A stretch of 64,000 nt of DNA from an uncultured Lachnospiraceae bacterium (lineage in GTDB: Bacteria; Bacillota; Clostridia; Lachnospirales; Lachnospiraceae), in the NCBI GenBank assembly GCA_947650005.1, contig CANSTU010000009.1, forward strand, positions 4,743-68,742. The letters are read 5' to 3'. This document shows positions 27,044-59,186 of the stretch, piece by piece. The translations under genes and the position numbers were made by a program. The number at the start of each line of letters is the position of its first letter. Within the stretch, counting starts at the first letter, position 1. Under the pieces are notes generated by a model. That model was given only the letters and a program-made list of their open reading frames with translations. It searched no databases and was not told the origin of the DNA.

Positions 27044-28039
27044 TTATGCGAAGAATTCCCGCAAAAGCTCCTCCAGCTCTTTTTCCTGTTTTCTGGTAAA
27101 GATCTGCTCCTCCATCCGCTCTTGTACAAATCCCGCATCCGCATCTTCCAGTCCGATTTCCATCTCCCGTATTCCGTCCGTTTCTTCCTTGATAGCCGCT
27201 CCGGTCTGCAGAACTTCTTCCTCTTCCCATGATCCCTGGGCGATCCGGCTTTTCCTTCCTTCATGCGCCTTAGCCAATCCCGCTGCTTCTTCCGATTCTT
27301 CCAGGACGGCCAGCCTAGCTGCCATATGATTTTCCAAGAAGTCAGTAAGACTTACTTTCAGCAGTTCCCTCTTGCCGTCTAAATCCACCAGGCCTGAAAT
27401 GCTGAAGTACAGATACAGCCCAAGGAAACTCATCAAATAAAAAGGAATGATTTCCCCAAATGATTTTCCGTCAATAATCCCTTTGCATGCACCCAGCCCG
27501 GCCGTTACAATGGATAGAAGCATCAGTTGTCCCGCCAAATGGGAAATGCCATCCACGGAGAATCTGCCGATTTGCAGCCTACTCAAAAACTTGTCCACAA
27601 ATATGGAAATATTGGGAACGCCGTCATTGAGTTTATAGCAGTTACGAAACTTCACCTTACATTTTTTTAACAAACGATTCTGCGTCGTTGACATATTCTC
27701 CGCTTCCCTGATCAGTGAATTGAGAAAAATTCCTACGGTAAATCTGCATAAAATACTTGCCAATAACAATATAATTGTCATAGCTACCAGTTCTTTATTT
27801 TCCAGAAAAGAAACCATAATACCTCCGATCCGCCGCTCGTCGGCGACGCTTTTGCGCATGACCAATGTTTTTGCCACTGCTTCGTAAAAACCATGCCTAA
27901 CCTTTAGCACATCGCAGGCTTTACCTGCGAAATACCGCCAATAAAGAGTTTGAAACTTCGTTTCAAACTTGTCCCTGCTATATCTGCCATTATAGAGGTA
28001 CACCCCGCCTCCCACAATACCGGGCGGGAGACTTTTCAT
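27044..28039 (-). CDS. Hypothetical membrane protein with acidic C-terminal tail
   Basis: Long ORF with 3-4 hydrophobic helices (e.g. [54 protein letters not shown]) and a Glu-rich C-terminus. I recognise no family and the start is uncertain. Confidence 0.45.
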
Positions 28040-28181
28040 CGTCAAATTACGCGCTTCCTTCCTGAAAAAGGGAATCTTTATGAAAATACTGGCATACTGG
28101 GGAAATTTTTGTTATAATTCGTATATTGGCCGTATATCGGCCCACAGCACGGAAAAAGTATAGATTAAAAAGACAGGAGGT

Positions 28182-29719: not shown

Positions 29720-30136
29720 CTATCCGCAGATCGTCTTTCTGATTTCTTTGAGTTCCTCCGGTTCCGGTTTGCCCGGCTCCCAGCCGATCTTAATCTTTTG
29801 CCCATCTTCGTCGTATCGTGGGATCAGGTGCATATGGAAGTGCCGAACCGTCTGTCCTGCGCTTTCCCCATTGTTCTGAACCAAGTTGAAACCGCTGCAG
29901 CCCAATTTTTCCGTCATTTTTATGGCCATCATTTTTGCAAGCCGTAACACCTCGCCGCACTTTTCCTCCGGCAATTCATACAAGCTGGCATAATGATCCT
30001 TCGGAAGGATTAACGCATGTCCTCTGGTCGCAGGGCCCAGATCCAGGATCACGCGATATCCCTTGTCCTCATACAACGTTTCAGAGGGAATTTCCCCATT
30101 CGCAATCTTACAGAAAATACAGGATTCTTCTTTCAT
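29720..30136 (-). CDS. HIT-family (histidine triad) protein
   Basis: I start it at MKEESCIFCKIANGEIP (ATG 30136, with AAGGAAAGGAA upstream). Histidine triad HFHMHLIP is present. Confidence 0.85.
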   Translation of the reverse strand: MKEESCIFCKIANGEIPSETLYEDKGYRVILDLGPATRGHALILPKDHYASLYELPEEKCGEVLRLAKMMAIKMTEKLGCSGFNLVQNNGESAGQTVRHFHMHLIPRYDEDGQKIKIGWEPGKPEPEELKEIRKTICG

Positions 30137-30181
30137 CTTAACAGGTTCCTTTCCTTTTGCCGACATTTCACGCAGAACCGC

Positions 30182-30829
30182 TCAGCGTACGGTCCCGCCG
30201 GTTCCTTTCCCTGGTATCTTTCCCACATGGCACAATAAAAATGTCAGAAGGAAACCGCTAATCAGGCCGCCCAGATGTGCCGCATTATTCACCATCACAT
30301 TCTGAAAACCGGAATACAGAGAAAGAGCTATCATCAGAATCATCCGCTGTATAGAAATTTGCGCCGCCCTCCCTTTCCGGGTAACCGCCAAATACAACAG
30401 GCCGCCCACAAGGCCGAACACAGCCCCGCTTGCGCCGACAGAATCATAAAATCCCCCTGTTGACAGCTCGTATGCAGCTGACAGAAAATTGCCGCAAATC
30501 CCTGAAAATAGGAATACAAGCAGATAACGCCCCCTACCTATCGTCTTCTCCACAATTTCTCCGCCAAAATATAGAAGAATCATATTATTCATTAGATGGC
30601 CGATATCCACATGTAAAAACATCGCAGAGATCAACCGATAATATTCCCTTCCCCTTAAAAGATATGCCACGCTGAAACATCCTGCATCATAAAACTGTCT
30701 GCCCCAGAAATGGCATGCCGCAAAGACAAGGATATTTATACCCGTCAAGACTGCGCTGCACCAAGGGATTTTCTCTCTGTTTAATCCCCTATCCTGATAA
30801 CCACGCACCAAATCCATACGCACCCCCAC
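30182..30829 (-). CDS. Rhomboid-family intramembrane serine protease
   Basis: Six hydrophobic helices. Catalytic GASGAVFGL (Ser) and AHLGGLISG (His). The HxxxN-type segment HVDIGHLMNNM is also present. Confidence 0.85.
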   Translation of the reverse strand: MGVRMDLVRGYQDRGLNREKIPWCSAVLTGINILVFAACHFWGRQFYDAGCFSVAYLLRGREYYRLISAMFLHVDIGHLMNNMILLYFGGEIVEKTIGRGRYLLVFLFSGICGNFLSAAYELSTGGFYDSVGASGAVFGLVGGLLYLAVTRKGRAAQISIQRMILMIALSLYSGFQNVMVNNAAHLGGLISGFLLTFLLCHVGKIPGKGTGGTVR

Positions 30830-31085: not shown

Positions 31086-32471
31086 TCATTCTCGGTATGT
31101 CAGTTCCATGTTCCCGAATGTGACCGCATCCCCGTCCTCCAGGATAATGGTTTCCTCCTGCTCCATGCGTATTCCATTCACATAAGTACCGTTGGTAGAA
31201 TTTAAATCGATCAGGGCCGTTCTTCCCCCTTTCTCCACGAACCTGGCGTGTATACGGCTTACGGATGCATCCGGAAGCAGAAGCTGTACCCGGCTCCTCA
31301 TTTTACCGACCATAACCGGAAGTCTGTCCAGGGAATATTCCTGCCCGCCCTCCTGCATATCCACCAGCCTTGGCCTACCCCTTCCATCCGGCTCCTCTCC
31401 GCTTCCCATCGTTCCTAGAAATACCGTAGGGCCATTCAGTCCGTCTGCGTTCTCTTCTTCCAAATAAAAGGAATCATTCCTGCCAATTTCCACATCTTCT
31501 TCCTTCTTCTCGGGCTTCCTATCCCGATCTCTTGTAAACATTACTTTCCACAGGAACCAAAGTGACAACATACCGTCCAGCGTAAGAAGTCCAAACAGGC
31601 ATATCTTTTCATTCCCCGTCGGCTGCAAATACCAGATTGACGCACATAGCATAAAAAAAGCAAGAAAAGCGCCGGCCAGCCCTGCTATATGCCATCCCTT
31701 CCTATGCGCACACCCCCTCTTCTCTCCATCCGTCTCCTCTAAATCCAAACTTCCTTCTTTGATCCAGTTGTTATAACCAGATATTGCAGGCCTTTCCTCA
31801 TCCCCTTCTTCCGCTCCATCCTGCGTTCCCCAATACTCATAAATTCCTTCTTCCTCACGAAAATAATTATTGCCCCAATCCTCCGCAACAGCATAGACCG
31901 TTTCCCCTCTTTTTGTTCCGCGCCCCTTTTCCAGGATGGTGCGGAAGCTTTCTATGGTAAAACTCTCCACCTTGGACATTTTATAGAATTGATAGGCTGC
32001 GGCCACCCCCTGTTCTTCCCTGTGATCCACATGCTCCAGAAGAAATTCTGCCACAGGAAGGTAGATGCTTCCCCATCTTTTCTGTACGGATCCAAAAGGA
32101 TCATACAGGAATAGCAGCTGTTCTGTTTCCAGATCCATATAGATGTATTCTGGTTCCAGGACCAGCCCGCTTTCTTCTAAAAGATACTCCGTGATCGTAT
32201 CTTGCACCTGCGCGAGATTATCCACGATTCCCCGAATCCCAGCATATCCTATTTTTGTGGATTCGTATAACCGTCCCAGTGACTGCCTTGAACTGATATC
32301 GTAATAAAGGCAGGCCCCTCCCTCCAAAAACCTTTCGCTGCACGGCAGAAGGCCCGGAATCCTGTTTCTTAAAATCATCTGACACTGGTATTTTCCCAAT
32401 TCTTCTTCCAAAAGCCCATCGACGACCAAATAACTGTGACTCAATTCCCGTTTATACAACGGCTTTTTCAT
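31086..32471 (-). CDS. Membrane protein with a C-terminal FHA domain (last gene of the Tad-like operon)
   Basis: 461 aa. It has an N-terminal soluble domain of about 230 aa and two hydrophobic helices (IAGLAGAFLAFFMLCASIWYL, LFGLLTLDGMLSLWFLWKVMF). The C-terminal FHA pattern reads VMVGKMRSRVQLLLPDASVSRIHARF...LIDLNSTNGTYVNG...LEDGDAVTFG. Confidence 0.8.
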   Translation of the reverse strand: MKKPLYKRELSHSYLVVDGLLEEELGKYQCQMILRNRIPGLLPCSERFLEGGACLYYDISSRQSLGRLYESTKIGYAGIRGIVDNLAQVQDTITEYLLEESGLVLEPEYIYMDLETEQLLFLYDPFGSVQKRWGSIYLPVAEFLLEHVDHREEQGVAAAYQFYKMSKVESFTIESFRTILEKGRGTKRGETVYAVAEDWGNNYFREEEGIYEYWGTQDGAEEGDEERPAISGYNNWIKEGSLDLEETDGEKRGCAHRKGWHIAGLAGAFLAFFMLCASIWYLQPTGNEKICLFGLLTLDGMLSLWFLWKVMFTRDRDRKPEKKEEDVEIGRNDSFYLEEENADGLNGPTVFLGTMGSGEEPDGRGRPRLVDMQEGGQEYSLDRLPVMVGKMRSRVQLLLPDASVSRIHARFVEKGGRTALIDLNSTNGTYVNGIRMEQEETIILEDGDAVTFGNMELTYRE

Positions 32472-32592
32472 GATGCCTCCCCTCCGCGCGCCTGCGCATC
32501 CCGCTTCTTCGATTCGTATACAAGATTAGGCTAAAAATGACATTCTGCCGCTTTTAACCGTGAATTTACGCCCGCTAAAACGGGCAGGATGG

Positions 32593-33078
32593 TTAAGATG
32601 ACGAAAGCATTCTCATTCCCCGAATGAACGCCGCGGCAGACCTGATCCTGGCACGTTTTTCCGCTCTAATCTGCCAGACTCTATTTTCCAGAGGAAAAAT
32701 TTCGGGAAACGGAAGCGCAATTTCCACTTCCAGCGTAACCTTCACCTCCAATCCCGTAGCCGTTACCTCTGTTTTCAAATTTCGAACTGGCAGGACGCTT
32801 TCTTCCAGAATCTTTTCCACTTCCTCGGACGCCACAGTTCCCCGATCCCTCCCGGCTCTTGCCAGACTTCCCCGTAAGGCGGCGATATAGGCTGCCTGAT
32901 TCAGAAAAGTCGCCGTATATAGATAGAAGGAAAGGAGCATGAGGAAACCGCAAAGCATTGCCGTCATGGGCATCAAAAGGCTTGCCTCCAGCGTCATATA
33001 TCCGTTGCTTCTCTCATGCCCTTCCCTCTTTTCCGGCCTTAACCCTTCTCTCTTTTTCTTGCCTTCGCTTATCCACAT
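32593..33078 (-). CDS. TadE-like pseudopilin/pilus-assembly protein
   Basis: I start it at MWISEGKKK (ATG is the complement of 33076-33078), which overlaps the peptidase stop by 10 nt. It has the prepilin-type motif G/YMTLEASLLMPMTAMLCGFLMLL (G-x4-E followed by a hydrophobic helix). 161 aa. Confidence 0.6.
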   Translation of the reverse strand: MWISEGKKKREGLRPEKREGHERSNGYMTLEASLLMPMTAMLCGFLMLLSFYLYTATFLNQAAYIAALRGSLARAGRDRGTVASEEVEKILEESVLPVRNLKTEVTATGLEVKVTLEVEIALPFPEIFPLENRVWQIRAEKRARIRSAAAFIRGMRMLSSS

Positions 33079-33521
33079 ATCAATCCCCCAAATATTTCCC
33101 CTATCCACAGCAGCACGACTGCAGCAAGAAAAAAGGGTGCAAAGGGAATCCGTGTATGCCGTGTCCCCTTTTGGGTCAAAAGTAGAAACATTGCCGCAAA
33201 GAAAACCAGAAAACAGGCGGCCAATACCTGCGCCGTACATCGTTCCCAGTGCTGCAGCAGACCTGCCAGAATCACCATTTTCCCGTCCGCCTCTCCCAGC
33301 TTTCCATCCGAAAGACGGCCATATAGAAGCATAATCGTTCCGGGGAGGATTCCCGCCATCACCGCCTGCCATCCAGCCATCCCGCTGATCATCTTACCCC
33401 CGGCATACAGGCTACCCAGCAGCAGCCCACCATGCAAAAGCCACACCGGGATCCGCATCGTTCTACAATCATAGAAACTGCAAAATCCCAGATAAACACA
33501 TAAAAATATTCGCTCTCCCAT
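33069..33521 (-). CDS. A24-family prepilin peptidase (short TadV/CpaA type)
   Basis: 150 aa and all-membrane. Two candidate catalytic Asp contexts are present: CSFYDCRTMRIP and GKLGEADGKMV. Confidence 0.7.
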   Translation of the reverse strand: MGERIFLCVYLGFCSFYDCRTMRIPVWLLHGGLLLGSLYAGGKMISGMAGWQAVMAGILPGTIMLLYGRLSDGKLGEADGKMVILAGLLQHWERCTAQVLAACFLVFFAAMFLLLTQKGTRHTRIPFAPFFLAAVVLLWIGEIFGGLICG

Positions 33522-33541
33522 CCGCTTTCAAGCTCCCTTTC

Positions 33542-34342
33542 TCATCCACACCTGCCGCAGGGCGGAAGTCCTCCAGCCTCCGACAGGGGAACACATCGCA
33601 CCGACCGCCTCAACCCGCTGCAATTTATGGTACTATGATATCTGTCCCCCTCTCTGGTGATATAGACTGCTCCGCCATCCCTGCCTCCACATTTCTCACA
33701 GGCATGATATTTCCCGCCTGATGCATTTCTGAACTGTCCAACCTCGGATTTCGCCACCAGTTCGATGGATAGACGCAAATGGCTGCAGTTTTCCGTCATA
33801 TGATACACCGCCCCATGCTCCGTGATATAGACATAGATTTCCCCTTCTCTCGCATCGCCGCTGCGCGTTACATCATAGCCCGTCCAGGCGCGCATACAAC
33901 AGCTGCTCGTGATCATCGTCCCCGGATAAGCCAAGATAGGGACCGGCGCCTTCAGCCAAACGGGCTTTACCAGCTGGATCATTTCGTCCTGCGTCCCGAC
34001 ATTTTCTCCCGCCGCGTAAGCCAGCATGGCAAGCTGCCTGCCCTGCTGATGTAGTTCCTCCAGATTCGTGGCATATGTATGAAAAAACAGGATTAGAGAA
34101 AGAATATTGATAAAAAAGAAGAGAAACAGCGGGACCACCACAGATGCTTCCACGCTCATGGAACCAGGGCTGCTTTCTGTCCGAAAGAGAGGAAACCAGG
34201 ACACCCTTTTTATCGGTTTTATCAGGGGATTTTCTACATGATCATTGGCAATTTGGTGAGGATATAACGTTCGGAAATGAATGGCCTTTCTGTAAAATTG
34301 GGGTTGATAGTTGCAATTGTGTTTCTCCGATAAAAAAGGCAT
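33542..34342 (-). CDS. TadE-like protein with a C-terminal duplicated Cys/His (zinc-ribbon-like) module
   Basis: ATG 34342 has AGGAGG 8 nt upstream. A 62-aa leader precedes G/SMSVEASVVVPLFLFFFINILSLILFF. The C-terminus contains VYHMTENCSHL...KYHACEKCGG and RYHSTINCSGL...PPCGRCG. Confidence 0.55.
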   Translation of the reverse strand: MPFLSEKHNCNYQPQFYRKAIHFRTLYPHQIANDHVENPLIKPIKRVSWFPLFRTESSPGSMSVEASVVVPLFLFFFINILSLILFFHTYATNLEELHQQGRQLAMLAYAAGENVGTQDEMIQLVKPVWLKAPVPILAYPGTMITSSCCMRAWTGYDVTRSGDAREGEIYVYITEHGAVYHMTENCSHLRLSIELVAKSEVGQFRNASGGKYHACEKCGGRDGGAVYITREGDRYHSTINCSGLRRSVRCVPLSEAGGLPPCGRCG

Positions 34343-34450
34343 CCTGCTTTCCTCCTTTCCCTATTCTCTTATCCAGCCGGTTTTAGCCGCGCCAGCCATA
34401 TTCCAATGCGGCCAGCTTAAGGCCATATTGGGCAGAGCCGGCCGCTGCAT

Positions 34451-35938
34451 TTATTCATATTGATAGGATCTTTTAATCCGGTACTGATACCCATAGCCGC
34501 TCGACACGGATGCCTCTGCCGTCATGGCATCCATGCAGCCGTCCATCCGAAATCCTCCATTTCCGGGCGTCATACGGATGTCTGCCTCCATCACGTCCAT
34601 CAGCCTTTTGATGGAAAGCTCCTCGGACTGCAGGTAGAGGAAAGCCTCCAGATAATTTTCATAAGAAAGTCCCTCCTTCCCTTCCCCATACTCTGACAGG
34701 TGACCGCGGAAGGTGAGAAGATGCCTATACGGCGTATTCCAGCTCCCATCGTCCTTGATTAAGGGGACTTTCCGGCCGTCGAACAACATCCTCAAATCCT
34801 TCACGCTTTCCGCATAGGCCCAGGCAAATAGAATCAGGGCTTCCACCGCCTCTGCCAATTCCGGCAGTCCCAATATTGTAGTCAGAAGCAGGGCTGTTTC
34901 TCTGGCTTCCCCTCTTTTCACGCCATTTCCAAACAGATAGGACACATTGGCTGCTTCCCGGATCATCAGGATCCGATTCGCCACGCTGCGAAGATTATCC
35001 AGATCATTTTCCTTCCCTTCCAGGATGTATTCCACCTGATAGGAAAACCCGCAGCCTTGCTTCTGCCTTCCGTAAAATCCGCATTTTTCCATCATATACC
35101 TCTGGAAAATACAGGATGCAGCCACACCGGAGGGTTCCTCCTTCCCCTCGGGAAGTCCCGTTCCCTCCATTAGGCGACCGCGGTGGGAAAAAAGGCCGTT
35201 TACCGGAATATGGGTTCTGGACAGGGCACCCGGCGCTTTTGCCGCCAGCGCCAGGATTCCTTCGCCCTTCGCCTGATTTACCACATCGGACGGCAGCTCC
35301 ACATCCCTCCCTTCCCAGTCCTCTTCCTCCTCTTCCTGCCGCCTTGCTATGGCATCCTTGACTTCCCTTTCCGTTTCTGCCCTCCTTTCTTCCACATTGC
35401 TGTCCAGAAGCCCGCTTCCCTGAAGGATCTGCGCGTTCACGGCCGCCTGGCTCAAATAGCCGATCCCCCATCGGCTCTTCATATAATCCACGGCCTGGCG
35501 CTTTAGAACCACCCCCGCATTATCGCTCGCCACGGAGGCGCGCAGAATATCTATCTGTTGTGCATACATTCCGGTCAGATCCTTTCCCACCGGAATCTGA
35601 AACACCTCAAAGGGACGGAAATTCATATTCATAAAATTTCTGATATGTTCTTCCGTATTCCTGTAAGAAGGTGACTCATTCCCATAGGACATATCGATGA
35701 AAAACAGATCATACTGCGAAAGCAGCTCCCTGTGATATTCCGCCAAAGCAGAGTCCATCGCCATATCCATCACACATTCCGTCTGCGTCCGAATGGTATG
35801 CATCCTTACGCCCTCTATCACTCCCATCACCAGAGATAGGAGGATCCCTGTCACCAGGGCCAGATATACGGTTATATACCCCTTCTGCAAGTTTTGGCTC
35901 CTTTCAGATCGTCCCCGCCTGAGAGGTGATTTTTCCAA
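34451..35938 (-). CDS. N-terminally anchored 495-aa protein of the Tad-like operon (DUF5702-like as I recall)
   Basis: GYITVYLALVTGILLSLVMGVIEGV is the single N-terminal helix; the rest is soluble. Its start overlaps the pilin gene's 3' end by 35 nt. Confidence 0.5.
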   Translation of the reverse strand: MEKSPLRRGRSERSQNLQKGYITVYLALVTGILLSLVMGVIEGVRMHTIRTQTECVMDMAMDSALAEYHRELLSQYDLFFIDMSYGNESPSYRNTEEHIRNFMNMNFRPFEVFQIPVGKDLTGMYAQQIDILRASVASDNAGVVLKRQAVDYMKSRWGIGYLSQAAVNAQILQGSGLLDSNVEERRAETEREVKDAIARRQEEEEEDWEGRDVELPSDVVNQAKGEGILALAAKAPGALSRTHIPVNGLFSHRGRLMEGTGLPEGKEEPSGVAASCIFQRYMMEKCGFYGRQKQGCGFSYQVEYILEGKENDLDNLRSVANRILMIREAANVSYLFGNGVKRGEARETALLLTTILGLPELAEAVEALILFAWAYAESVKDLRMLFDGRKVPLIKDDGSWNTPYRHLLTFRGHLSEYGEGKEGLSYENYLEAFLYLQSEELSIKRLMDVMEADIRMTPGNGGFRMDGCMDAMTAEASVSSGYGYQYRIKRSYQYE

Positions 35939-36116
35939 AAATATTCGTCACCAGGCTGGTAAGCTGGCTCTTGAATATGATAACCAGGCCGATCAGCACC
36001 AGGATGATCAAAATCACCTCCACCGTCCCCATTCCTTCTTCCCCTTTCAGAACCTTTATACCTCTTTTTCTCAGTTTAGCTGCCGCACCCCGAATACTCC
36101 CAATCGCTTTACACAT
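35904..36116 (-). CDS. Flp-family type IVb/c pilin (70 aa)
   Basis: It lies inside the 95-aa track ORF. ATG is the complement of 36114-36116, with AAAGGAG 5 nt upstream. Sequence: MCKAIGSIRGAAAKLRKRGIKVLKGEEG/MGTVEVILIILVLIGLVIIFKSQLTSLV..., i.e. a basic leader, G-x4-E and a hydrophobic helix. Confidence 0.7.
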   Translation of the reverse strand: MCKAIGSIRGAAAKLRKRGIKVLKGEEGMGTVEVILIILVLIGLVIIFKSQLTSLVTNIFGKITSQAGTI

Positions 36117-36256
36117 GTAAACTCCTTTCCGCCCGTTCTGCCGGGCACTCGCTTTTATATACCATGCGCGTTCTGAGCCGTAGCTCCACATAGGGGCGCC
36201 GGCCGCCTTTCACAGCGCACGATTCCATCCAAGGTTTTTCCCGCCATTTCCGGCCC

Positions 36257-37726
36257 TTACATCCCTGTGAAGGAAAAACATGCCGGAACCATAATCAACA
36301 CCATGACCACCGTCAGCATCATAATCATGGGGAGAAGCAATTTTGTCCCCGCCCGCTCCCCTTCCTCTCTCGCATGGCGCATTCTTTCCGAAAGGGAACG
36401 GGTAGCCTCCTCCTGCAGGGAGGCGATCAGGCCGGCGGAACCCTTTTTCAGATTTTGCGTTAGCAGCGTCATACATTTCCGATACTGGGGCAGATGGCAT
36501 CTTTCCCCAAAATGTTCGTAGGCCTGGATCTCCGTCACGCCGCTCTCCATTTCCCGGCAAGTTAAAATCAGTTCCTCATACACATAACCTGTTTCATCGG
36601 ATATCCGTTTCTTCCGGTAGTCGGATGCCATCCTGAAAAAAGCTGCCCGTACTGGAAGTCCGGCGCCCATCAGCAGGACTAGTTTGCTGATGAATTCAGG
36701 ATAGGAACGCAGAAGCTGTTCCCTGCGTTCTTCCATTCTCTTTCTCAGATCCCTGTCCGGAAGGCCATATTGCGCCAAGCCAGCCATCAGGAAAACCGCA
36801 AACAGGATCAGGCTGTTATCGCTTCGATGTTCTACCCATTGAAGCGGCTCGTCCCCCTCCCGATCAGGAAGGGAAAATCCTTCGTCATAGGCCGACTCCT
36901 CATCCCTCTTCCTGATTTCCTCCAGGATTCGATTTTGCATTATTTCATCCTCTGTGAGCACGGGAGGACATACCCTGACAGGAAAGCGTTCCTCCCATTT
37001 ATCCTCAAAGTAGGTTAGCGTTGCCTTCATCCATATGACTTCTCCCTCCTTTCCTACATCCGCGTTCGTCACGCTCCCGTCGTTTTTGATCCTGCCATAG
37101 TCGCCGCTTTCCCAGGTGATCCGAAATGGAAATCCCTCCTCCCAGGAAGGCAGAAACAGGGCTGATCGCACCTCATCCAGACTTTCATTTTCTCCCTTTA
37201 GTTCTTCCTCAAGCACAGCTCTCAGCTCCTGCCGCATTTCTTCCAACTGTTTTCTGGTATATTTTCTCTCTTCCACCTCGACCTGAAGCCGTCTGTCTTC
37301 CTCTTCTCCCTCCACCTGCAGCTCGATTCTTGCTGTGCCCTGCCCGTAGGAATTTCTCCATACCCATCCCTCCTTTGTCACGCGCCTTTGCATCTGTCCT
37401 GCCATCGTAACCAACAGACCGAATATCGCTCCCAGAAAACCCAGAAACAGCAATGCGCTGATCCGCTCAGCCCTATGGCGCCGTATCATATCGGCTGCAT
37501 TCGAGGGGTATAGGATCCGCATATCCTCCCGCAGACGGATTTCTGCTGCATTTCCCCTCTTCATACTCTTTTCTCGTTTTTCCAGCCAGCGTTCCAATCG
37601 GGATGCGGGTTTTAAGAAGATACGGTACATTCGATCCGGCTTCCATCCCTCTTCGACCGCCTCCTTACTTGTCCCGATCAGAAGGGCCATTTCCAGCCCC
37701 AGGAAAATCACATAGACAGCCCACAT
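36257..37726 (-). CDS. TadC-like platform protein (T2SSF domain) with a large inserted hydrophilic domain
   Basis: The C-terminal third (LLRSYPEFISKLVLLMGAGLPVRAAFFRMASDY...LLLPMIMMLTVVMVLIMVPA) fits the T2SSF/GspF-like pattern. Residues of about 115-310 are a hydrophilic insertion between TM helices. Confidence 0.65.
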   Translation of the reverse strand: MWAVYVIFLGLEMALLIGTSKEAVEEGWKPDRMYRIFLKPASRLERWLEKREKSMKRGNAAEIRLREDMRILYPSNAADMIRRHRAERISALLFLGFLGAIFGLLVTMAGQMQRRVTKEGWVWRNSYGQGTARIELQVEGEEEDRRLQVEVEERKYTRKQLEEMRQELRAVLEEELKGENESLDEVRSALFLPSWEEGFPFRITWESGDYGRIKNDGSVTNADVGKEGEVIWMKATLTYFEDKWEERFPVRVCPPVLTEDEIMQNRILEEIRKRDEESAYDEGFSLPDREGDEPLQWVEHRSDNSLILFAVFLMAGLAQYGLPDRDLRKRMEERREQLLRSYPEFISKLVLLMGAGLPVRAAFFRMASDYRKKRISDETGYVYEELILTCREMESGVTEIQAYEHFGERCHLPQYRKCMTLLTQNLKKGSAGLIASLQEEATRSLSERMRHAREEGERAGTKLLLPMIMMLTVVMVLIMVPACFSFTGM

Positions 37727-37729
37727 CTA

Positions 37730-38542
37730 TCACACCTCGATTTCTACTATTTTACGCGACAGCAAATACGCTGCCAGGTATACGGCCAGGGCGCCCGTCA
37801 TCACCAGGATTCCTGCAGGATTGTAATAAAGGACGTCAAAAAATCCTGGAGAGGTGAGCTTCAGATATGCCATGATCAGAAAAGGGATCAGATTCATAAT
37901 TCTCTGCTCATATTTTTTCGAAGAAAGGAGCGTACGGATCTCTTGTTTTACTTCGATTTTATTACCTATGACTTCTGCGCTGCGACGTATGATATGGTTC
38001 ATATTCCCTCCTGCCCTTTTTGCTATAGAAAACACCTCCGCAAAATCCTCTATGTCACTCTGTGCGCTCCGTGCTCCCAAATCCAGGAGCAGGGTTTCCA
38101 AAGGCATATTATTTCCCACCCCCTTTTCCATGCGTTCCAGTTCCCATACCATGGCGCTTTTGCTTCCGTACAGTCTTCCCACCTCCTTCTTCGATTCAAA
38201 GAAAGCATTTTCTATGGAGTATCCGGCCTGCAGCCCTGCCGCCACGGACAGGATTGTATCCCGAAATTCCAATGCCAATTCCTGACGCCGTTTTTCAGCA
38301 AGTTGTCTTCCGTTTTCCTTTAGGTAAAGGAAAACCAGAGGCGTCAGGAAAGGCGATGCCCATAGGGAACGATAGAAGAACCAGGAAAACAGCAGCACAA
38401 TCGCAATCCCCTGCGATGTATAGATCAGCAGCTCCCGCACATTCATAGAATAGATCCGGTAGTCCGGCGCGTGCTCCTTCTTGGACGACGCCTTTTTATC
38501 CTCTCTACGGCCCAATCCCCGCCATCTTGAGTTTGTCCCCAT
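37730..38542 (-). CDS. TadB-like platform protein (T2SSF domain)
   Basis: 270 aa. FRDTILSVAAGLQAGYSIENAFFESKKEV, followed by a C-terminal TM pair. It overlaps the ATPase gene's 3' end. Confidence 0.7.
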   Translation of the reverse strand: MGTNSRWRGLGRREDKKASSKKEHAPDYRIYSMNVRELLIYTSQGIAIVLLFSWFFYRSLWASPFLTPLVFLYLKENGRQLAEKRRQELALEFRDTILSVAAGLQAGYSIENAFFESKKEVGRLYGSKSAMVWELERMEKGVGNNMPLETLLLDLGARSAQSDIEDFAEVFSIAKRAGGNMNHIIRRSAEVIGNKIEVKQEIRTLLSSKKYEQRIMNLIPFLIMAYLKLTSPGFFDVLYYNPAGILVMTGALAVYLAAYLLSRKIVEIEV

Positions 38543-39761
38543 GGATTAGTTCCCCCTTTCTTACCAACCGGCCGCGTACCCTGTTTGCGTCCCCTCCGTC
38601 TTCTTCAAATTCAAACAATACGGACAGCCGGATTTCTCCGTCCCAAATCCCCTCCACCTCGGCGATCTGCAATACCTTTCTCGTCTTATCCCGCATCCTT
38701 CCCAGATGGACGACGATATCTACGCCGGAAGCAATCTGCCTACGGATTGCGGGAAGTGGAATTTCCATCCCCATTAACATCATCGTTTCCAGGCGTGTGA
38801 GCATATCTCCTGCGCTGTTGGCATGTCCGGTGGACATGGAGCCGTCGTGTCCGCAGTTCAGGGCGCTCCCCACCAGATCCACCGCTTCCTCGCCCCTCAC
38901 CTCCCCTACGATGATCCGGTCCGGCCGCATCCGCAGGGATGTGCGGATTAAATCCCGAATGGCGATCGGACGGCATCCTTCCACATTGGCGTTTCTCGTC
39001 TCCATACGAACCAGATTGGTAATTCCCCGGATCTGTAGCTCCGCGCTGTCCTCAATGGTGATCAGCCTTTCGTCCGGCGGAATATACCCCGCCAAGGCGT
39101 TCAGAAACGTGGTTTTACCGCTGCCCGTCCCCCCGCTGATGAAAATATTGTATCTGGCTTTCACCACCTTCTCTAAGAAGTCACAAGCCTCCTGCGTTAC
39201 GGATCCTGCTTCCAGCAGTTCCTTCATGCCGATGGGTTTCTCAGGAAACCGCCTTATCGTCACCACCGGGCCGTTTAAAGCAACCGGGGCCAGCACCACG
39301 TTTACCCTGGATCCGTTTTCCAGCCTGGCGTCCACAATGGGCGATGCCTCGTTCACCGTCCGGTTACAGCCGGATACGATCTGCTGGATCACATCCTGCA
39401 GCTTCTCCCTGGACGCAAACCCCCATGGCCAGGACGAAAGCCTTCCCTCCCGTTCCACGAAAATTCCTTCCATACCATTAATCATGATCTCCGTCACCTG
39501 CGGATCATCAATCAGCTCCTGAATCGCATCCAGCCCGCGCATGGCATAGAACAATTCCCTTCCCATCCTGACGCGTTCATGGACATCCAGTTTTCCCGCC
39601 GTCTCCCTGCCCCGCAGCTTTCCTGCAATTCGATCCTGTAATTCCCCGTCCGGCATTTCCCGTGATAGATCAATCGTTTCCAGTAATTCCTCCCGGACAT
39701 TTTCCCGAATCCTTTGATACTCCTTCTCCCGTTCTCCCATTCCCTCTCTTCTTTCCTCCAT
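38505..39761 (-). CDS. CpaF/TadA-family secretion ATPase (T2SSE)
   Basis: 418 aa. Walker A FISGGTGSGKTTFLNAL, Walker B-type RIIVGEVRGEEA, and a His box GHDGSMSTGHANS. Confidence 0.9.
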   Translation of the reverse strand: MEERREGMGEREKEYQRIRENVREELLETIDLSREMPDGELQDRIAGKLRGRETAGKLDVHERVRMGRELFYAMRGLDAIQELIDDPQVTEIMINGMEGIFVEREGRLSSWPWGFASREKLQDVIQQIVSGCNRTVNEASPIVDARLENGSRVNVVLAPVALNGPVVTIRRFPEKPIGMKELLEAGSVTQEACDFLEKVVKARYNIFISGGTGSGKTTFLNALAGYIPPDERLITIEDSAELQIRGITNLVRMETRNANVEGCRPIAIRDLIRTSLRMRPDRIIVGEVRGEEAVDLVGSALNCGHDGSMSTGHANSAGDMLTRLETMMLMGMEIPLPAIRRQIASGVDIVVHLGRMRDKTRKVLQIAEVEGIWDGEIRLSVLFEFEEDGGDANRVRGRLVRKGELIHGDKLKMAGIGP

Positions 39762-40764
39762 CGCCCAGATCTTCCCTGATCAGTTTTCCAACCGCGCCTG
39801 CCAGTTCCCCGTGGGTTAAGTTCTCCAGCTCGGCCGGCAGCGTCCGAAAAATGGGAAGCCTGCATTTTCTGGTCTTTGACAGGATCTCTTCCAGCTCCAT
39901 ACAACGCAGCAATTCTTCATAATGTTCCTGTTTTGCTTCCGCGAAACCGTCTTCCTTTACGATGGTATAGATCTGGCTGCATCTTTTTAAAAGTTCAAAC
40001 AGTCCCTGAACGCTCTCCGTAAGATCCAGAAGAATGTATTCGTACATCCCGCAGCTCTCCAGTTCGTCCAAAAGGGTAAGCCATTCCTCCTTCTCTATCT
40101 TCATTAAATCCATACAGGAGAAAACCGGTGGAACGAAATCCATTCCGCACACCTTCTGCGCCATCCCCTCCAGTCGGTAAGGAAACCGTCCGTCCTTGTT
40201 ATGTATAAAATAAATCAAATCCGATAAGTCAGCCCTAAACTCTCGCCGGAGCATCCGGCCCAATCCTGAAAAACACTCAAAATTCAGATATAATACTTTG
40301 TGATTTCGGGCAAGAAGCTGCCCTAATGTGAATGAAAATGTGGTTTGAAGACACCGTCCCACCGGTGAATAGATTCCGATCAATTTTAGGCTCCCTGCCC
40401 GCCCCGGGCCGGAGGCCGGTGGCAGAATCCCTGTCTGCACCGAAAGTTCTATGATCCTGCGTACCACAGCCTCCATGGGCTGATATTTCCCGATCCATGG
40501 TACTTCGGGCGGCCCGGCCATATCTTCCGCCAATACCAGGATATGGCTGGCTTCCCATCCATCCCTCCTTTCATACAGAGATTGGGCAATCAGAAGGAAT
40601 ACCGCCTCTTCCCCTTTGCCGATCCGTTCCAAGGACTTCCCATCCGTATAGACCCGTACCTCAAAAGGAAAATTTTCCATAACGGACGGACGATGGAGAT
40701 AGTCCATGAAATGGCTGACATACTCCCGTTCCGTGTCGCAGAGCGCCAGAATATTCTTTTTCAA
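39670..40764 (-). CDS. TadZ/CpaE-like protein: receiver-like N-domain plus ParA/MinD-like domain with a degenerate P-loop
   Basis: I prefer the TTG start at 40764 (GGGAGG 7 nt upstream, MKKNILALCDTE) over the track ATG at 40779. GIYSPVGRCLQTTFSFTLGQLLA sits where ParA/MinD has KGGxGKT. YEYILLDLTESVQG sits at the Walker B-like position. Confidence 0.5.
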   Translation of the reverse strand: MKKNILALCDTEREYVSHFMDYLHRPSVMENFPFEVRVYTDGKSLERIGKGEEAVFLLIAQSLYERRDGWEASHILVLAEDMAGPPEVPWIGKYQPMEAVVRRIIELSVQTGILPPASGPGRAGSLKLIGIYSPVGRCLQTTFSFTLGQLLARNHKVLYLNFECFSGLGRMLRREFRADLSDLIYFIHNKDGRFPYRLEGMAQKVCGMDFVPPVFSCMDLMKIEKEEWLTLLDELESCGMYEYILLDLTESVQGLFELLKRCSQIYTIVKEDGFAEAKQEHYEELLRCMELEEILSKTRKCRLPIFRTLPAELENLTHGELAGAVGKLIREDLGDGGKKRGNGRTGEGVSKDSGKCPGGITGND

Positions 40765-41040
40765 ACAAAAACCTCCCATAAAACAATAGCTTATAAAAAT
40801 CTGTTAGTAAGGCAAAATGGAATTCTTGATACACGGTCGAAAGAATTGAAAAAGACCGTGCCCGGATACTGATGATCCAATTGATGAAACTGAGTATAAA
40901 CCATCCCCTGAGATTTGTCCATAGGAGAAACGGTAAAAAAACAGTTTTGTGAAAAATAGACGAACGTCCCTTTGTAAGTACCAGTTAAAACGCCCCAGCC
41001 CCTGATAAATACAGGGTTTTTACCTGTCAAAAATATTGTC

Positions 41041-43817: not shown

Positions 43818-46800
43818 TCATTCTATCATGAAATCCCCTTCATGCAGAATAATCATGTCGTCATCATCGTACCGCTTGGCGAGGATCACGTCCATGAAAT
43901 GTTTCGGCGTCTTCTTGTTCGCATGGTCGATCGCCCTGTTCACGATCTGGCGCACATCCTTCACCGTAACTACATGATCAATGGTCTGCATGCCTTCAAT
44001 ACAGGTGTGCAGGGCAAGTCTTCCCAGCTCATCGATGGCATATTCCTGCATCTTGGCGTACTGACAGCCATAGGCTACCAGCGTACCGTTATCCAAGGCC
44101 TCGATATCAAACCTAGCATTAAAGAAGGGCTCCATTTCCGGATTTTCCGTTTCAAGTGTCCGGATATTACGTTTTGTATCGATCAGGATCACAAGGATCC
44201 CCCATCTCTCCTGATCCAGGGCAGCCAACAGCTCCTGCATGCCGTCGCGGCTGATCTCCCCGGCTCGCTCAATGATCATCGCACCGCCGGAAAGCTTCTC
44301 AATGAATTCCGAAGGATCCTTTTTACCGCTGTTTAAGGCCGGACCGGACATTTTAGCCAGTTTCCCGGAAAAATTCCGATCTTTTGCCCGCATATCCTTA
44401 ATCACATTTTTTGCCAATTCAAGAGTATCCGAACCGGGATCTCCTGTGATAATAAGATTGCCCGTATAGGCTGCAAGGCTCAGCTTATCCAGAGCTGCGG
44501 CCAACCTCTTCATGGCGCCTTTTGTGGGTACAAAGGAGGAAAACATCCGTTTTTCTTCCGAACTAAGTCCTCTGTTTTTCTCCCTGCCCTCCCCGGGCTC
44601 CATCCGCCGATATCGGCCCTCTGCTTCCTGTTTATGGCCTTCCTGCCTGTTTTGGCGGGAAGTATTTTCTTCTGGTATGCCTTCCTGCGCCTCTTCCAGT
44701 CCGCTTTCTTGGAGCATATTTCCTTCGGGAATCTCATTTTGCACATTCATGCGGGAAATACTTTCCCCGGCAATGTTCTCTTGAACGCCATCCGGCGGCA
44801 TATTTCCTCCGTATATATTCCCCTGCAAAGTTCTACTTTTGAAGGGCCGCATTTCTTCAGGCATCCTGTAATCCCGTTCTACCAGCCGCCGATCCGCTTC
44901 CTGACGATAAATCTCTTCAGGCAATCCGTTTTCTTCCCGATGGCTATCCCTCACGGGTGCTCCGTCCACATCCAGACGTCCGTCCCTTGCGGGCATTCTA
45001 TCTGTCTCCCAGCGCTCATCCCTTGCGGATGCTCCGTCCACATCCAAGCGTCCATCCCTTGCGGGCATTCTATCTGTCTCCCAGCGCTCATCCCTTGCGG
45101 ACGCTCCGTCCACATCCAAGCGCCCATCTCCTGCAGGCGCTCTTTCTGCCTCTCGGATCTCATCTCTTACAAGCGTTTTGCCCGCCTCTTGGCGTCCATT
45201 CCTCGCAGGCGTCCTATCTGCTTCTCGGATCTCATCCCTCACAGGCGTTTTGCCCACTTCTTGTCGGTCATTGGCCGCGGACGTCCCGTCTGATTCCCGA
45301 TAGCCATTCCTTACAGGCATTCCATCCGCTTCCCAGCGCTTACCCCTTCCCCGTTCTCTCTCCGCCCTTTGGAGAATCGTTTCCGGCGTATCGGCATCTC
45401 GCCCACGGCGCTCTGAACCCGGCTGTTTCTCTCCCGTTCCTCGGTAATTATCCTCTGGCATTTCTATCTCATGCTCATACCTGTTTCCTCCCCAATGTGC
45501 ATCTTCCTTTTCCCGATAGACAGATTTATCCTCATTTTGTTCCGAAACGCCACGGCTGCTTTCCGGCCGGCTCCCGTCCTGCCGCCGATCCGCTTCCAGC
45601 TGGCTTCTGTCCGCATCAGGGCTCTTTTTTTCCGTATATACCTCTTGCTCTTCCCGGCGGATCAGCTCTGACTGCCTATCAGCCGCAACCAGCCGGCTCC
45701 TTTCTGAACGATCGTTGGCTTCTTCCCGCGTATTTTCTTCCGATCTCCTATCTATGGTCTCCGCATGCCTTCCTTCCGATGAGCGGCTATTGGGGGCATG
45801 GCGTCTCTTTTCCGTCCCCCCGATACGCTCCCCTTCAAACGCTTCCGTGTCCGTCATTGTTTCCTCAGATGGGATACGCGATGAAGAATCCTCTGCTTTT
45901 GCCGCCCTTTTCAGGGCATTGTTCACCTCTTCCGCCGCCCAAATCTTGGTCTGGGCAGAAATCACATTATCGGAGACCTGTTTTCTCTTTTCTACAGGGA
46001 TCTGCTCCTCCTTCTGCAGTTTCTCGAGAATCCCCTCTCTGGAAGAGGTATCGAAATCCCGCAGCAGCGTGCCTGTCTCCTTCTGCATCCGATCATGCAG
46101 CTGTCGGCGACGCTTCTCTTCGTTCACCTGCTTCATCTTTTCCCATTCCTTCATGACATCTTCTATATTCATCTGGCCGGTGATCTGCTTCTCCACCTGC
46201 TTTTCATCAGATACTGAAGAATGCTCCTGGGACAGACTTTCCCCGACACTTCTCTTTCCCTCTTCCCCATTGACAGGCTGTTGGGAATCGCTCCTTTCTT
46301 CCGAAGTAGGCTGGGCGGGCAGACGTTCAGACTGTGGCGGTAAAACAGCGCGCATTCCTTCCTCAGGTTCCTGGCCATCAACAGTGCGCATACTTTCCAC
46401 AAACTTTATCTTTTCCCGGGCATTCGTTTGCTCAACCGGCCTTCTGTTTTCATATTCCTGTTGTTTTTCTTCATAATCAGGCCGCAGGCTTTCATATACC
46501 TGCATGCTTCCATAGGCCCTTCTCCCTCTCTCATAGGCAGCTTGGCCATTGTCCTCATAAGGAACAGCTGCCGCTGGAGATTTCCGCCTCCCATCGTCAT
46601 AATTCGGCAGTATTTCCTCAGGTGCTCTATTGTCTGTGACCTCACTCCAGCCTTTTCCGTCCCCCGCTCCCGTACCATTCGGCTGGTCGCTTCCACCGTA
46701 TCCGGCCTGCATGTCTCCATAATCGTACTGTTCTGAATCGTAACCGGGCTGCATCTGGTCATAAGTGTACTGCTCCTGACCGTTATCCGGCTGATTTTGA

Positions 46801-48347: not shown

Positions 48348-48600
48348 AATGTCACCTCTACCGTATGCCTCAGTAATGAGCCTTCCGACCCACTTTTTGC
48401 ATATAAGTTTACCATAACAGGACGCTTGCGGCAAGAGCGGAAGCGTGAAGTTTTTTAGGAGACCCCTGGCAGTTTATCCCACTCTCCCATCCCCCTTTTA
48501 CAGCATTGTTCCGTATCCCCCAGCCAGGTTAGCGTGGAATCAGGAACGCAACAGCAACCCAAGCGCCGCGTGCATACACCTAGTGCAGGCAAAAATTGTC

Positions 48601-59023: not shown

Positions 59024-59186
59024 TTGTACATCGCTCCCGTCTGTCCGCTTAGGCGGACGCTCCTCTCCATTCCTTTCCATGCCCAGCCGGTATCCTGCAA
59101 AGGAAACGGACAGCCTCCGCGCTCTTTCCATCCCTCCGTGCCATAGAGAAAAATCCGCTTCTCCGAAGGGTTGTAAAAAATATCTC

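Follow-up and report, generated by a model that had tools for sequence, protein, structure and literature searches.

A ten-gene locus of Lachnospiraceae read as a secretin-less Tad (type IVc) pilus operon with a conserved RNA helix over a minor pilin start

The classical Tad/Flp systems of Aggregatibacter actinomycetemcomitans and Caulobacter (Cpa) combine a CpaF/TadA motor, two single-domain platform proteins, TadZ, a TadV peptidase without methyltransferase domain, a tiny pilin and TadE-type pseudopilins. The same elements are found in a block of ten genes on the Lachnospiraceae contig CANSTU010000009.1, of which a stretch of 64 kb was analysed (the window, to which all positions refer). Judged by its sequence, this locus is a Tad (type IVc) pilus operon without a secretin. 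Compared to the classical systems, it lacks secretin, RcpB/C, TadD and CpaB; its pilin belongs to the Flp1_like family, has no Tyr6 and is encoded in the middle of the operon; TadC contains an immunoglobulin (Ig)-like ectodomain, and an FHA membrane protein is added. Furthermore, TadG is replaced by an unrelated protein of the DUF5702 family, and the locus occupies a fixed chromosomal position instead of a mobile island. The best functional analogy for adhesion and colonisation is the Tad system of Bifidobacterium breve UCC2003, a monoderm gut commensal; this system reportedly has no secretin either and is needed for gut colonisation. It is said to differ in its actinobacterial origin, its classical Flp pilin and its TadE/F proteins, and to contain no DUF5702 protein, Cys/His pilin or DUF6382-FHA protein.

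The Kil system of Myxococcus xanthus with its KilL/M/N tip (PMC8460266, PMC12075869) resembles the operon in being derived from Tad, in having three minor pilins of graded size, the largest of which has a head without PDB homologue, and in the presence of FHA proteins. In contrast to the operon, Kil is a diderm machine with a secretin, several interchangeable tip sets, an FHA domain fused to the ATPase and a partner complex resembling a type III secretion system. Between Kil and the operon, no sequence relationship was detected; nothing points to a role of the operon in killing. More generally, the published model describes Tad tips as heterotrimers in which minor pilins of three sizes are combined, the large one being variable and having its head exposed (PMC12075869). 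For the TadZ of Eubacterium rectale, which belongs to the same bacterial family, a structure is available (3FKQ; Xu et al. 2012 as cited in PMC11217815). This protein has the same two-domain layout as the TadZ-like protein of the operon, but keeps the glycine-rich loop SPCGGVGTST where the family described here has (Y)xPVGRCLQT(S/T). The literature on DUF6382 that we found consists of PMC11217815 alone, in which the domain occurs in TseJ and TsfJ of the type VII secretion systems (T7SS) T7SSe/f. As in the operon, DUF6382 is followed by FHA in these proteins, and TsfJ has two transmembrane (TM) helices with both domains predicted to be cytoplasmic. Here, however, the gene is the last one of a Tad operon, and there is no T7SS gene nearby.

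Catalogues of clostridial Tad loci exist (PMC3244431, PMC6668835). The initial annotation of this DNA had proposed a candidate for an undescribed system; it is more appropriate to speak of a distinct variant of a known one, as FHA companions and TadE/F/G-like tips are already known, DUF5702, DUF6382 and Flp1_like are Pfam families, and one TadZ of the family has been solved. The proposal that the layout is functionally uncharacterised agrees with the literature, in which, many subscription papers being outside coverage, we found no functional study of an orthologous locus, no paper mentioning DUF5702 or Flp1_like and none testing a Lachnospiraceae Tad system. The RNA helix described below is new; the DUF5702 head without PDB relative and an H-C-C-C module outside Pfam are described there as well.

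The list of open reading frames (ORFs) contains ten co-directional frames on the minus strand within 31086-40779, all of them intact. The GC content of the block is 0.475-0.533 and similar to that of the flanks. With gene boundaries set from start codons, ribosome sites and homologue lengths, the features are as follows, in the direction of transcription (lengths in amino acids, aa, and nucleotides, nt).

40893..40921 (-), sigma-A-type promoter TGGACA-17 nt-TATACT, ~130 nt upstream of tadZ
39670..40764 (-), tadZ-like gene, 364 aa, start TTG 40764 with GGGAGG ribosome site
38505..39740 (-), cpaF, motor ATPase, 411 aa, alternative start 39761
37730..38542 (-), tadB-like platform gene, 270 aa, one T2SSF domain
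36257..37726 (-), tadC-like platform gene, 489 aa
35904..36116 (-), flp, Flp1-like prepilin, 70 aa, AAAGGAG ribosome site
34451..35890 (-), DUF5702 gene, putative large minor pilin, 479 aa, start TTG 35890
34186..34357 (-), long-range RNA helix, 25 bp, supported by covariation
33542..34342 (-), gene for a Cys/His TadE-like putative minor pilin, 266 aa
33069..33521 (-), gene for an A24 TadV-type prepilin peptidase, 150 aa
32593..33078 (-), gene for a second TadE-like putative minor pilin, 161 aa, from start and motif inspection
31086..32471 (-), gene for a DUF6382-TM-TM-FHA membrane protein, 461 aa

All ten minus-strand genes that had been placed at 31086-40764 are thus present, and all ten identifications were reproduced. 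The boundaries required some corrections. The protein given as 495 aa has a length of 479 aa and is pilin-like; the earlier value corresponds to the longest ORF. The start of the longer version was dismissed, because TTG 35890 is preceded by the ribosome site GAAAGGAG and because 479 aa is the length at which most of the closest homologues (at least 61% identity) are called. DUF5702 most likely starts at this TTG, and the overlap with flp claimed for 35904-35938 is therefore an artefact. Of the three other claimed overlaps, those at 38505-38542 and 33069-33078 hold, whereas the one at 39670-39761 shortens from 92 to ~71 nt, with cpaF probably starting at 39740. That the tadZ/cpaF overlap is nevertheless long is due to the tadZ gene of this genome, which encodes a ~30-aa Gly/Lys/Arg-rich C-terminal extension relative to its orthologues (39670-39770). 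The second TadE-like gene and the FHA gene are separated by a 121-nt gap here and overlap by 4 nt in relatives. No intrinsic terminator was found 3' of the FHA gene, and apart from the inverted repeat I1 described below, the repeats within the operon are chance-like matches.

The core components were identified by profile and structure matches, which reproduced the earlier assignments of the TadZ-like, CpaF/TadA, TadB-like and TadC-like proteins and of the A24 peptidase. CpaF matches T2SSE (1.2e-54, Pfam) and the TadA family TIGR03819 (3.5e-85, NCBIfam), and it aligns over nearly its full length with the cryo-electron microscopy chains of C. crescentus CpaF (1.5e-81). Its Walker A motif (GGTGSGKT), Asp box and Walker B motif are all intact. 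Compared to the value of 3.5e-85 for TadA, the match to ComGA is only 3e-17, and the platform is split into two proteins; the combination of a ComGA ATPase, a two-domain ComGB and a ComGC pilin that marks a competence (ComG) pilus is not found in the operon. In the window, the T2SSF matches of TadB (5.4e-5) and TadC (9e-5) are below the Pfam cut-off. The domain is present in 29 of 31 TadB orthologues (best 6.6e-10) and in all 31 TadC orthologues (best 2.1e-12); neither protein gave a useful PDB sequence match. TadC contains a ~200-aa Ig-like aBig_2 domain between TM2 and TM3, which is also found in 24 of the 31 orthologues (best 4e-15). TM segments and topology were derived by a hydropathy scan alone, which predicts this domain to face outward.

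For the TadZ-like protein, no match was obtained in Pfam or NCBIfam. Its single sequence matches 3FKQ with 1.1e-6; the profile of its orthologues matches 3FKQ with 4.3e-28, covering residues 5-292, almost the full length, and both domains; weak matches to ParA and MinD were found besides. The protein consists of an atypical receiver domain and a ParA/MinD-like domain with a degenerate P-loop (YSPVGRCLQTT). From the alignment with 3FKQ, nucleotide binding is therefore doubtful. The peptidase matches Peptidase_A24 (1.2e-10), its residues D18 and D79 are invariant among orthologues, and it has no methyltransferase domain. In many lineages (for example L083 1390-2028, L085 3281-3793, L086 2186-2755 and L048/L059/L073) a second, longer A24 gene is located between bofA and tadZ; the window has only the internal copy. 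A Pfam scan of the operon detected neither a secretin RcpA nor RcpB/C or TadD, in agreement with the initial annotation. In a monoderm their absence is expected and not disqualifying (Denise et al. 2019).

In order to assess conservation, a profile of DUF5702 homologues was used, which has relatives in 515 species-representative genomes. The best 80 loci, almost all from Lachnospiraceae, were examined by searching their six-frame ORFs with the proteins of the window; some counts are based on the loci with enough flank (n=67). Eisenbergiella tayi DSM 26961 and strain CE91-St56, the latter with a complete genome, are among the 80. Every one of the 80 loci contains DUF5702 and the Cys/His pilin, and 78 contain flp; for the peptidase, for the second TadE-like gene and for the FHA gene, the count is 77. 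All ten genes occur in 60/67 loci with enough flank; their order is identical in 57, and the other 3 only swap overlapping stop-to-stop frames of neighbours. Seven loci are incomplete: three have a mobile element in flp and four are without one small, fast-evolving gene at the threshold used. The element (L004, 3274-7864; L007; L023) carries genes for three tyrosine recombinases in a row. It interrupts flp in its 5' part and thereby separates the upstream half of the operon from the pilin genes. Five further loci, which were reached independently via homologues of the FHA protein or the Cys/His pilin, contain the same block. The linkage of the accessory genes to the core is thus near-perfect, and since ATPase, platform, pilin and peptidase all have significant matches, the Tad/Flp annotation stands.

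The flanks are conserved as well. Upstream, a DUF2508 (yaaL-like) gene and bofA are found in 59 and 60 of the 80 loci, respectively; downstream, rhomboid and HIT genes follow in 65/80, and murG (31/80) and glgB (18/80) recur on the flanks. This fixed chromosomal site, unlike the usual mobile tad islands, argues for vertical inheritance within the family and for the operon being a core feature of Lachnospiraceae. In the window, the rhomboid and HIT genes are located at 29720-30829 (-); their distance from the FHA gene is sometimes only 70 nt, and they may just be conserved backbone. The promoter of the window was found by a consensus scan. In 56/61 loci, the same element, T[AG]GACA-16/17-TATA[AC]T, occupies the region between bofA and the first gene of the operon, compared to 0.11 expected from shuffles, and it aligns across three clades. 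The gene bofA has the same direction as the operon; in the window, nothing more than a weak hairpin separates the two. In many lineages an inverted repeat, TTGTGAA-N3-TTTACAA, lies ~25-40 nt upstream of the -35 element and is a candidate operator; the strict pattern occurs in 16/61. A partial copy is present in the window at ~40955-40975 (-), and the repeat is found in L032-L061 and others.

The 70-aa Flp-type pilin of the initial annotation is indeed a small prepilin, with a match to PF16982 Flp1_like (3.4e-22); a match to the classical Flp family Flp_Fap, however, was not found in Pfam. Its motif EEG↓MGTVE(I/V)(I/V)LI (the arrow marks the cleavage site) is conserved across 78 loci, and the predicted cleavage after G28 would yield a mature pilin of ~42 aa. 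Position -1 is a Gly and position +5 a Glu, but position +6 is not a Tyr; the classical motif is G↓XXXXEY. A pilin of this kind corresponds to the 'Flp-like' class described for Gram-positive bacteria (Imam et al. 2011).

Three further proteins, of 161, 266 and 479 aa, have prepilin-type N-termini with class-III signal motifs. The motifs are RSNG↓YMTLE in the 161-aa protein (G26, Glu at +5), SSPG↓SMSVE in the 266-aa protein (G60) and MQKG↓YITVY in DUF5702 (G4), which has a short leader and a Tyr instead of a Glu at +5. The Pfam TadE matches of these pilin-like proteins are weak and below the cut-off (E 0.005-0.06), and the 161-aa protein, found in 77/80 loci, shows such a weak match at its N-terminus. 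For the earlier designation of two proteins as TadE-like, no Pfam score reaches the cut-off; what speaks for it is a Glu5-containing prepilin motif together with the prediction of an alpha-1 helix. DUF5702 was recognised by Pfam with 3.4e-84, in addition to a weak TadE N-terminal match. Its AlphaFold2 model (predicted local distance difference test, pLDDT, 89.1; predicted template modelling score, pTM, 0.85) consists of an N-terminal helix (residues 2-50) and a mostly helical head. A profile-profile comparison of DUF5702 with the Cys/His pilin was negative.

In the Cys/His pilin, a 60-aa leader is followed by an alpha-1 helix and a small beta domain; the protein also contains a tandem pair of H-C-C-C modules of the form YH-x4-C...C-x2-C, and its TadE match is weak. 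Among 84 homologues, E65 and the residues of both modules (H181/C186/C215/C218 and H236/C241/C262/C265) are invariant. In the AlphaFold2 model (pLDDT 78.5) the leader is disordered, a helix comprises residues 64-110 and the C-terminal region is well predicted; Foldseek found no match with E <1 in the PDB. The possibility that the long leader reflects a mis-called start was rejected. Of the 72 loci scanned, all except two keep the frame open over 42 or more codons before the cleavage Gly, and most have a strong ribosome site with its start codon 41-81 codons upstream of this Gly; the long leader is therefore real. The whole protein has no PDB sequence match, and for the isolated H-C-C-C module no match was found in Pfam (E up to 10), in NCBIfam or among PDB sequences. 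A profile of the module identified 2,851 clusters at 50% identity, a family not covered by Pfam. It includes membrane-anchored proteins of 750-1,150 aa, in which 7-12 tandem 'YYHxxxxCxGMxxA...CPxC' copies follow a TM segment and Ser/Thr-rich linkers. The H-C-C-C module is thus an extracellular repeat of wide distribution. It would presumably bind zinc and lend stability to small surface domains of anaerobes that are unable to rely on disulfides.

The genes of the three putative minor pilins are near-adjacent, and the sizes of the products are graded (161/266/479 aa) as in the TadE/F/G (KilL/M/N) tips. The long N-terminal helices in the models of both DUF5702 and the Cys/His pilin also count in favour of a tip. 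Because three of them contain class-III signal motifs, the proteins formerly regarded as accessory are best read, by analogy, as the TadE/TadF/TadG-like minor-pilin tip set of this lineage and not as exotic add-ons. In type II secretion and type IV pilus systems, a subunit without Glu5 is located at the very tip (GspK-type pseudopilins). Every following subunit requires this Glu5; DUF5702 has none and is therefore probably the outermost, distal subunit.

The inverted repeat I1 of 28 nt pairs the ribosome site and the AUG of the Cys/His pilin gene with a segment that lies 110 nt downstream, in the leader-coding region of the same gene. The 5' arm (34331-34357) comprises the Shine-Dalgarno site, the AUG at 34342 and codons 2-4; the 3' arm (34186-34212) lies inside the leader-coding region. 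In the window, the minimum free energy (MFE) of the fold is -55.6 kcal/mol (z = -3.69). The same pairing, defined as at least 12 of the 21 ribosome-site/AUG nucleotides paired with a distal segment that directly precedes the codon of the cleavage site, is present in the MFE fold of 62/69 loci, with a median z of -3.97. Applying RNAalifold to a plain MAFFT alignment of 58 distinct sequences, a single helix of 25 pairs was obtained, 22 of which show compensatory double changes. Paired cells amount to 96.1%, compared to 81.0 ± 0.6% in shuffled alignments (0/500) and 53-61% in slid controls, and there are 245 double-change cells, compared to 73.5 ± 11.5 in the shuffles. The covariation score is 0.592 and drops to 0.16-0.24 if the partner is slid by 1-3 columns. 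A long-range RNA helix thus buries the ribosome site and the AUG of the Cys/His pilin gene. It has no match in Rfam. The leader peptide motifs 'M.FL' and 'KR.S', which are weakly conserved, coincide with the helix arms and may therefore reflect the RNA constraint. A second conserved stretch is located in the loop of the helix and reads ATTTCCGAACG in the window and TTCTCTCCGGGCAT in a large clade.

Long-range helices that mask ribosome sites serve translational coupling or kinetic control, for example in MS2 phage genes and ribosomal-protein operons. The helix described here likewise covers Shine-Dalgarno site and AUG; in contrast to those cases, its 3' arm is located 120-220 nt downstream, within the leader-peptide coding region of the gene itself. 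To our knowledge, no such masking helix is known for a pilin gene. The distance between the DUF5702 stop codon and the AUG of the Cys/His pilin gene is 16-20 nt in the largest clade. A ribosome terminating there could reach the AUG, so that translational coupling is suggested; in most lineages the stop codon is no further from the helix than a ribosome footprint.

The product of the last gene, announced earlier as a 461-aa membrane FHA protein, matches DUF6382 (5.6e-47) and FHA (1.4e-16) in Pfam. DUF6382 is followed by an acidic linker, a two-helix TM hairpin (262-308) and the FHA domain, and both soluble domains are predicted to be cytoplasmic. Residues G389, K390, S405, R406, H408 and N427 are invariant among orthologues, and the Ser, His and Asn by which FHA domains bind phospho-threonine are thus all invariant. 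In comparisons with the PDB, the FHA part alone gave a match and the DUF6382 domain none; a profile-profile comparison with TadZ was negative. The gene is the terminal one of the Tad block in every locus seen. FHA proteins have precedents in Tad and T7SS systems (PMC8460266, PMC12019362, PMC11217815): they accompany the Kil Tad system, and in some proteobacteria an FHA domain is fused to CpaF (class III CpaF). By analogy, the protein could act as a phospho-dependent assembly gate.

Taken together, we consider it likely that the operon codes for the Tad (type IVc) pilus machine of a monoderm, a core feature of Lachnospiraceae, in which a displayed tip, an adhesive function, gating by the FHA protein and control by the RNA helix are combined; these functional statements are derived from sequence, models and analogy. 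The A24 peptidase would cleave the prepilins after Gly and release the 42-aa major pilin and the three minor pilins, and CpaF would polymerise Flp on the TadB/TadC platform, docked by the TadZ-like protein. The small TadE-like protein, the Cys/His protein and the DUF5702 protein would form a priming and tip complex analogous to TadE/F/G and KilL/M/N. The fibre tip would then expose the DUF5702 head and the zinc-type H-C-C-C modules as a surface for binding, with adhesion in the gut as its most likely use. TadC may, with its Ig-like ectodomain, replace the missing RcpC/secretin layer at the cell wall. The docking site of the FHA protein would be a phospho-threonine produced by a kinase whose gene lies elsewhere, and the FHA protein would gate assembly or activity. 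Finally, the helix would keep the Cys/His minor pilin at a low level and, in lineages with the short gap, couple its translation to that of DUF5702, which would fit the assumption that both proteins are partners made in matched amounts.

Several observations weigh against this reading or parts of it. Everything beyond the gene identities is analogy. For the DUF5702 model, Foldseek yielded no match in the PDB (best E 1.5), and no homology of DUF5702 to TadG or KilN was detected in Pfam or among PDB folds, so that their relation is one of analogy only. The evidence for linkage covers the closest 80 of 515 loci, almost all of them from Lachnospiraceae. Given its degenerate P-loop, the role of the TadZ-like protein may differ from that of an ATP-binding TadZ. 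In the FHA domain, the canonical Arg of the 'GR' motif is an invariant Lys in this family, and no Ser/Thr kinase or phosphatase was found among the 20 other ORFs of the window that were scanned. Translational coupling fits neither the window, with its gap of ~106 nt, nor several loci of the Eisenbergiella clade (45-150 nt); in the window, a simple damping or kinetic role of the helix is more likely. A further-reaching version of the pilus reading assumes that a tip of unseen architecture, with the DUF5702 head and the zinc-type H-C-C-C modules, is the main colonisation determinant of the family, and that its assembly is set by two undescribed controls, a DUF6382-FHA phospho-switch in common with type VII secretion systems and the RNA helix, which would meter one tip subunit against another. 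We regard this version as rather doubtful.

Other explanations each have some support, but less than the pilus reading. The fibre could belong to a DNA-uptake (competence) pilus that binds extracellular DNA via the zinc-type modules and retracts. Tad-dependent transformation is reported for the monoderm Micrococcus luteus (PMC4322843), Cys/His zinc modules are often nucleic-acid binders, and a conserved core gene set outside mobile islands would suit such a function. On the other hand, the operon contains no ComEA, ComEC or DprA-type gene, and no match of the module in sequence or fold to a DNA-binding protein was found. Its 7-12 tandem copies in Ser/Thr-rich surface proteins moreover look structural or adhesive, and we consider DNA uptake unlikely. 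To a similar degree, it is improbable that the locus is a device for contact-dependent antagonism or export, Kil-like or acting with type VII secretion, under FHA/phospho-threonine control. Kil is an FHA-rich Tad system with variable tips, DUF6382-FHA proteins are otherwise described only as TseJ/TsfJ of T7SSe/f, and T7SSg/h loci always adjoin Tad genes (PMC11217815). However, EssC-type ATPase, WXG100, LXG and toxin-immunity genes were found neither in the operon nor in the scanned neighbours, and the same locus composition in every sampled genome is unlike that of arms-race loci.

The position of bofA and the DUF2508 gene directly upstream (60 and 59 of the 80 loci), with bofA co-directional and only a weak hairpin in between, might point to a sporulation-linked apparatus expressed with bofA in the mother cell. 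A sporulation-type promoter (sigma-E, -K, -F or -G) was looked for, and a conserved promoter of the housekeeping TTGACA/TATAAT type was found instead, which weakens this interpretation of the bofA adjacency. As the downstream rhomboid and HIT genes are conserved to the same extent (65/80), the adjacency is better explained by a conserved backbone than by a functional link, and a role in sporulation is very improbable. Equally hard to believe is a silent or decaying relic: flp is interrupted by a mobile element in three species and the P-loop of TadZ is degenerate, but all ten frames are intact here, all ten genes are present in 60/67 loci, the catalytic motifs are retained and compensatory changes maintain the helix. 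Intact frames, retained motifs and the maintained helix indicate ongoing purifying selection.

Lachnospiraceae are among the most abundant butyrate producers of the mammalian gut, but little is known about their means of attachment and persistence. As a single, invariant and chromosomally fixed unit, the putative pilus operon offers a defined genetic handle on this question, and with Eisenbergiella tayi DSM 26961 and strain CE91-St56 cultured carriers are available. Further leads are the pilin head without structural relative and the extracellular H-C-C-C repeat family with its 2,851 clusters, and the covarying helix over the ribosome site may exemplify translational control inside a type IV pilus operon.

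Outside the operon, two ORFs of the window, 56981-59131 (-) with 716 aa and 27044-28045 (-) with 333 aa, gave no Pfam match at the thresholds used. A third one at 43818-48434 (-), also without Pfam match, encodes 1,538 aa with a TPR-like N-terminus. A 42-nt repeat for 'QYGYD(x)SQSGYDAG' occurs ~12 times in it; there is also a second array, of a 72-nt Arg/Asp/Glu-rich repeat, and the C-terminal part contains the degenerate P-loop-like motif ITGDPGSD.

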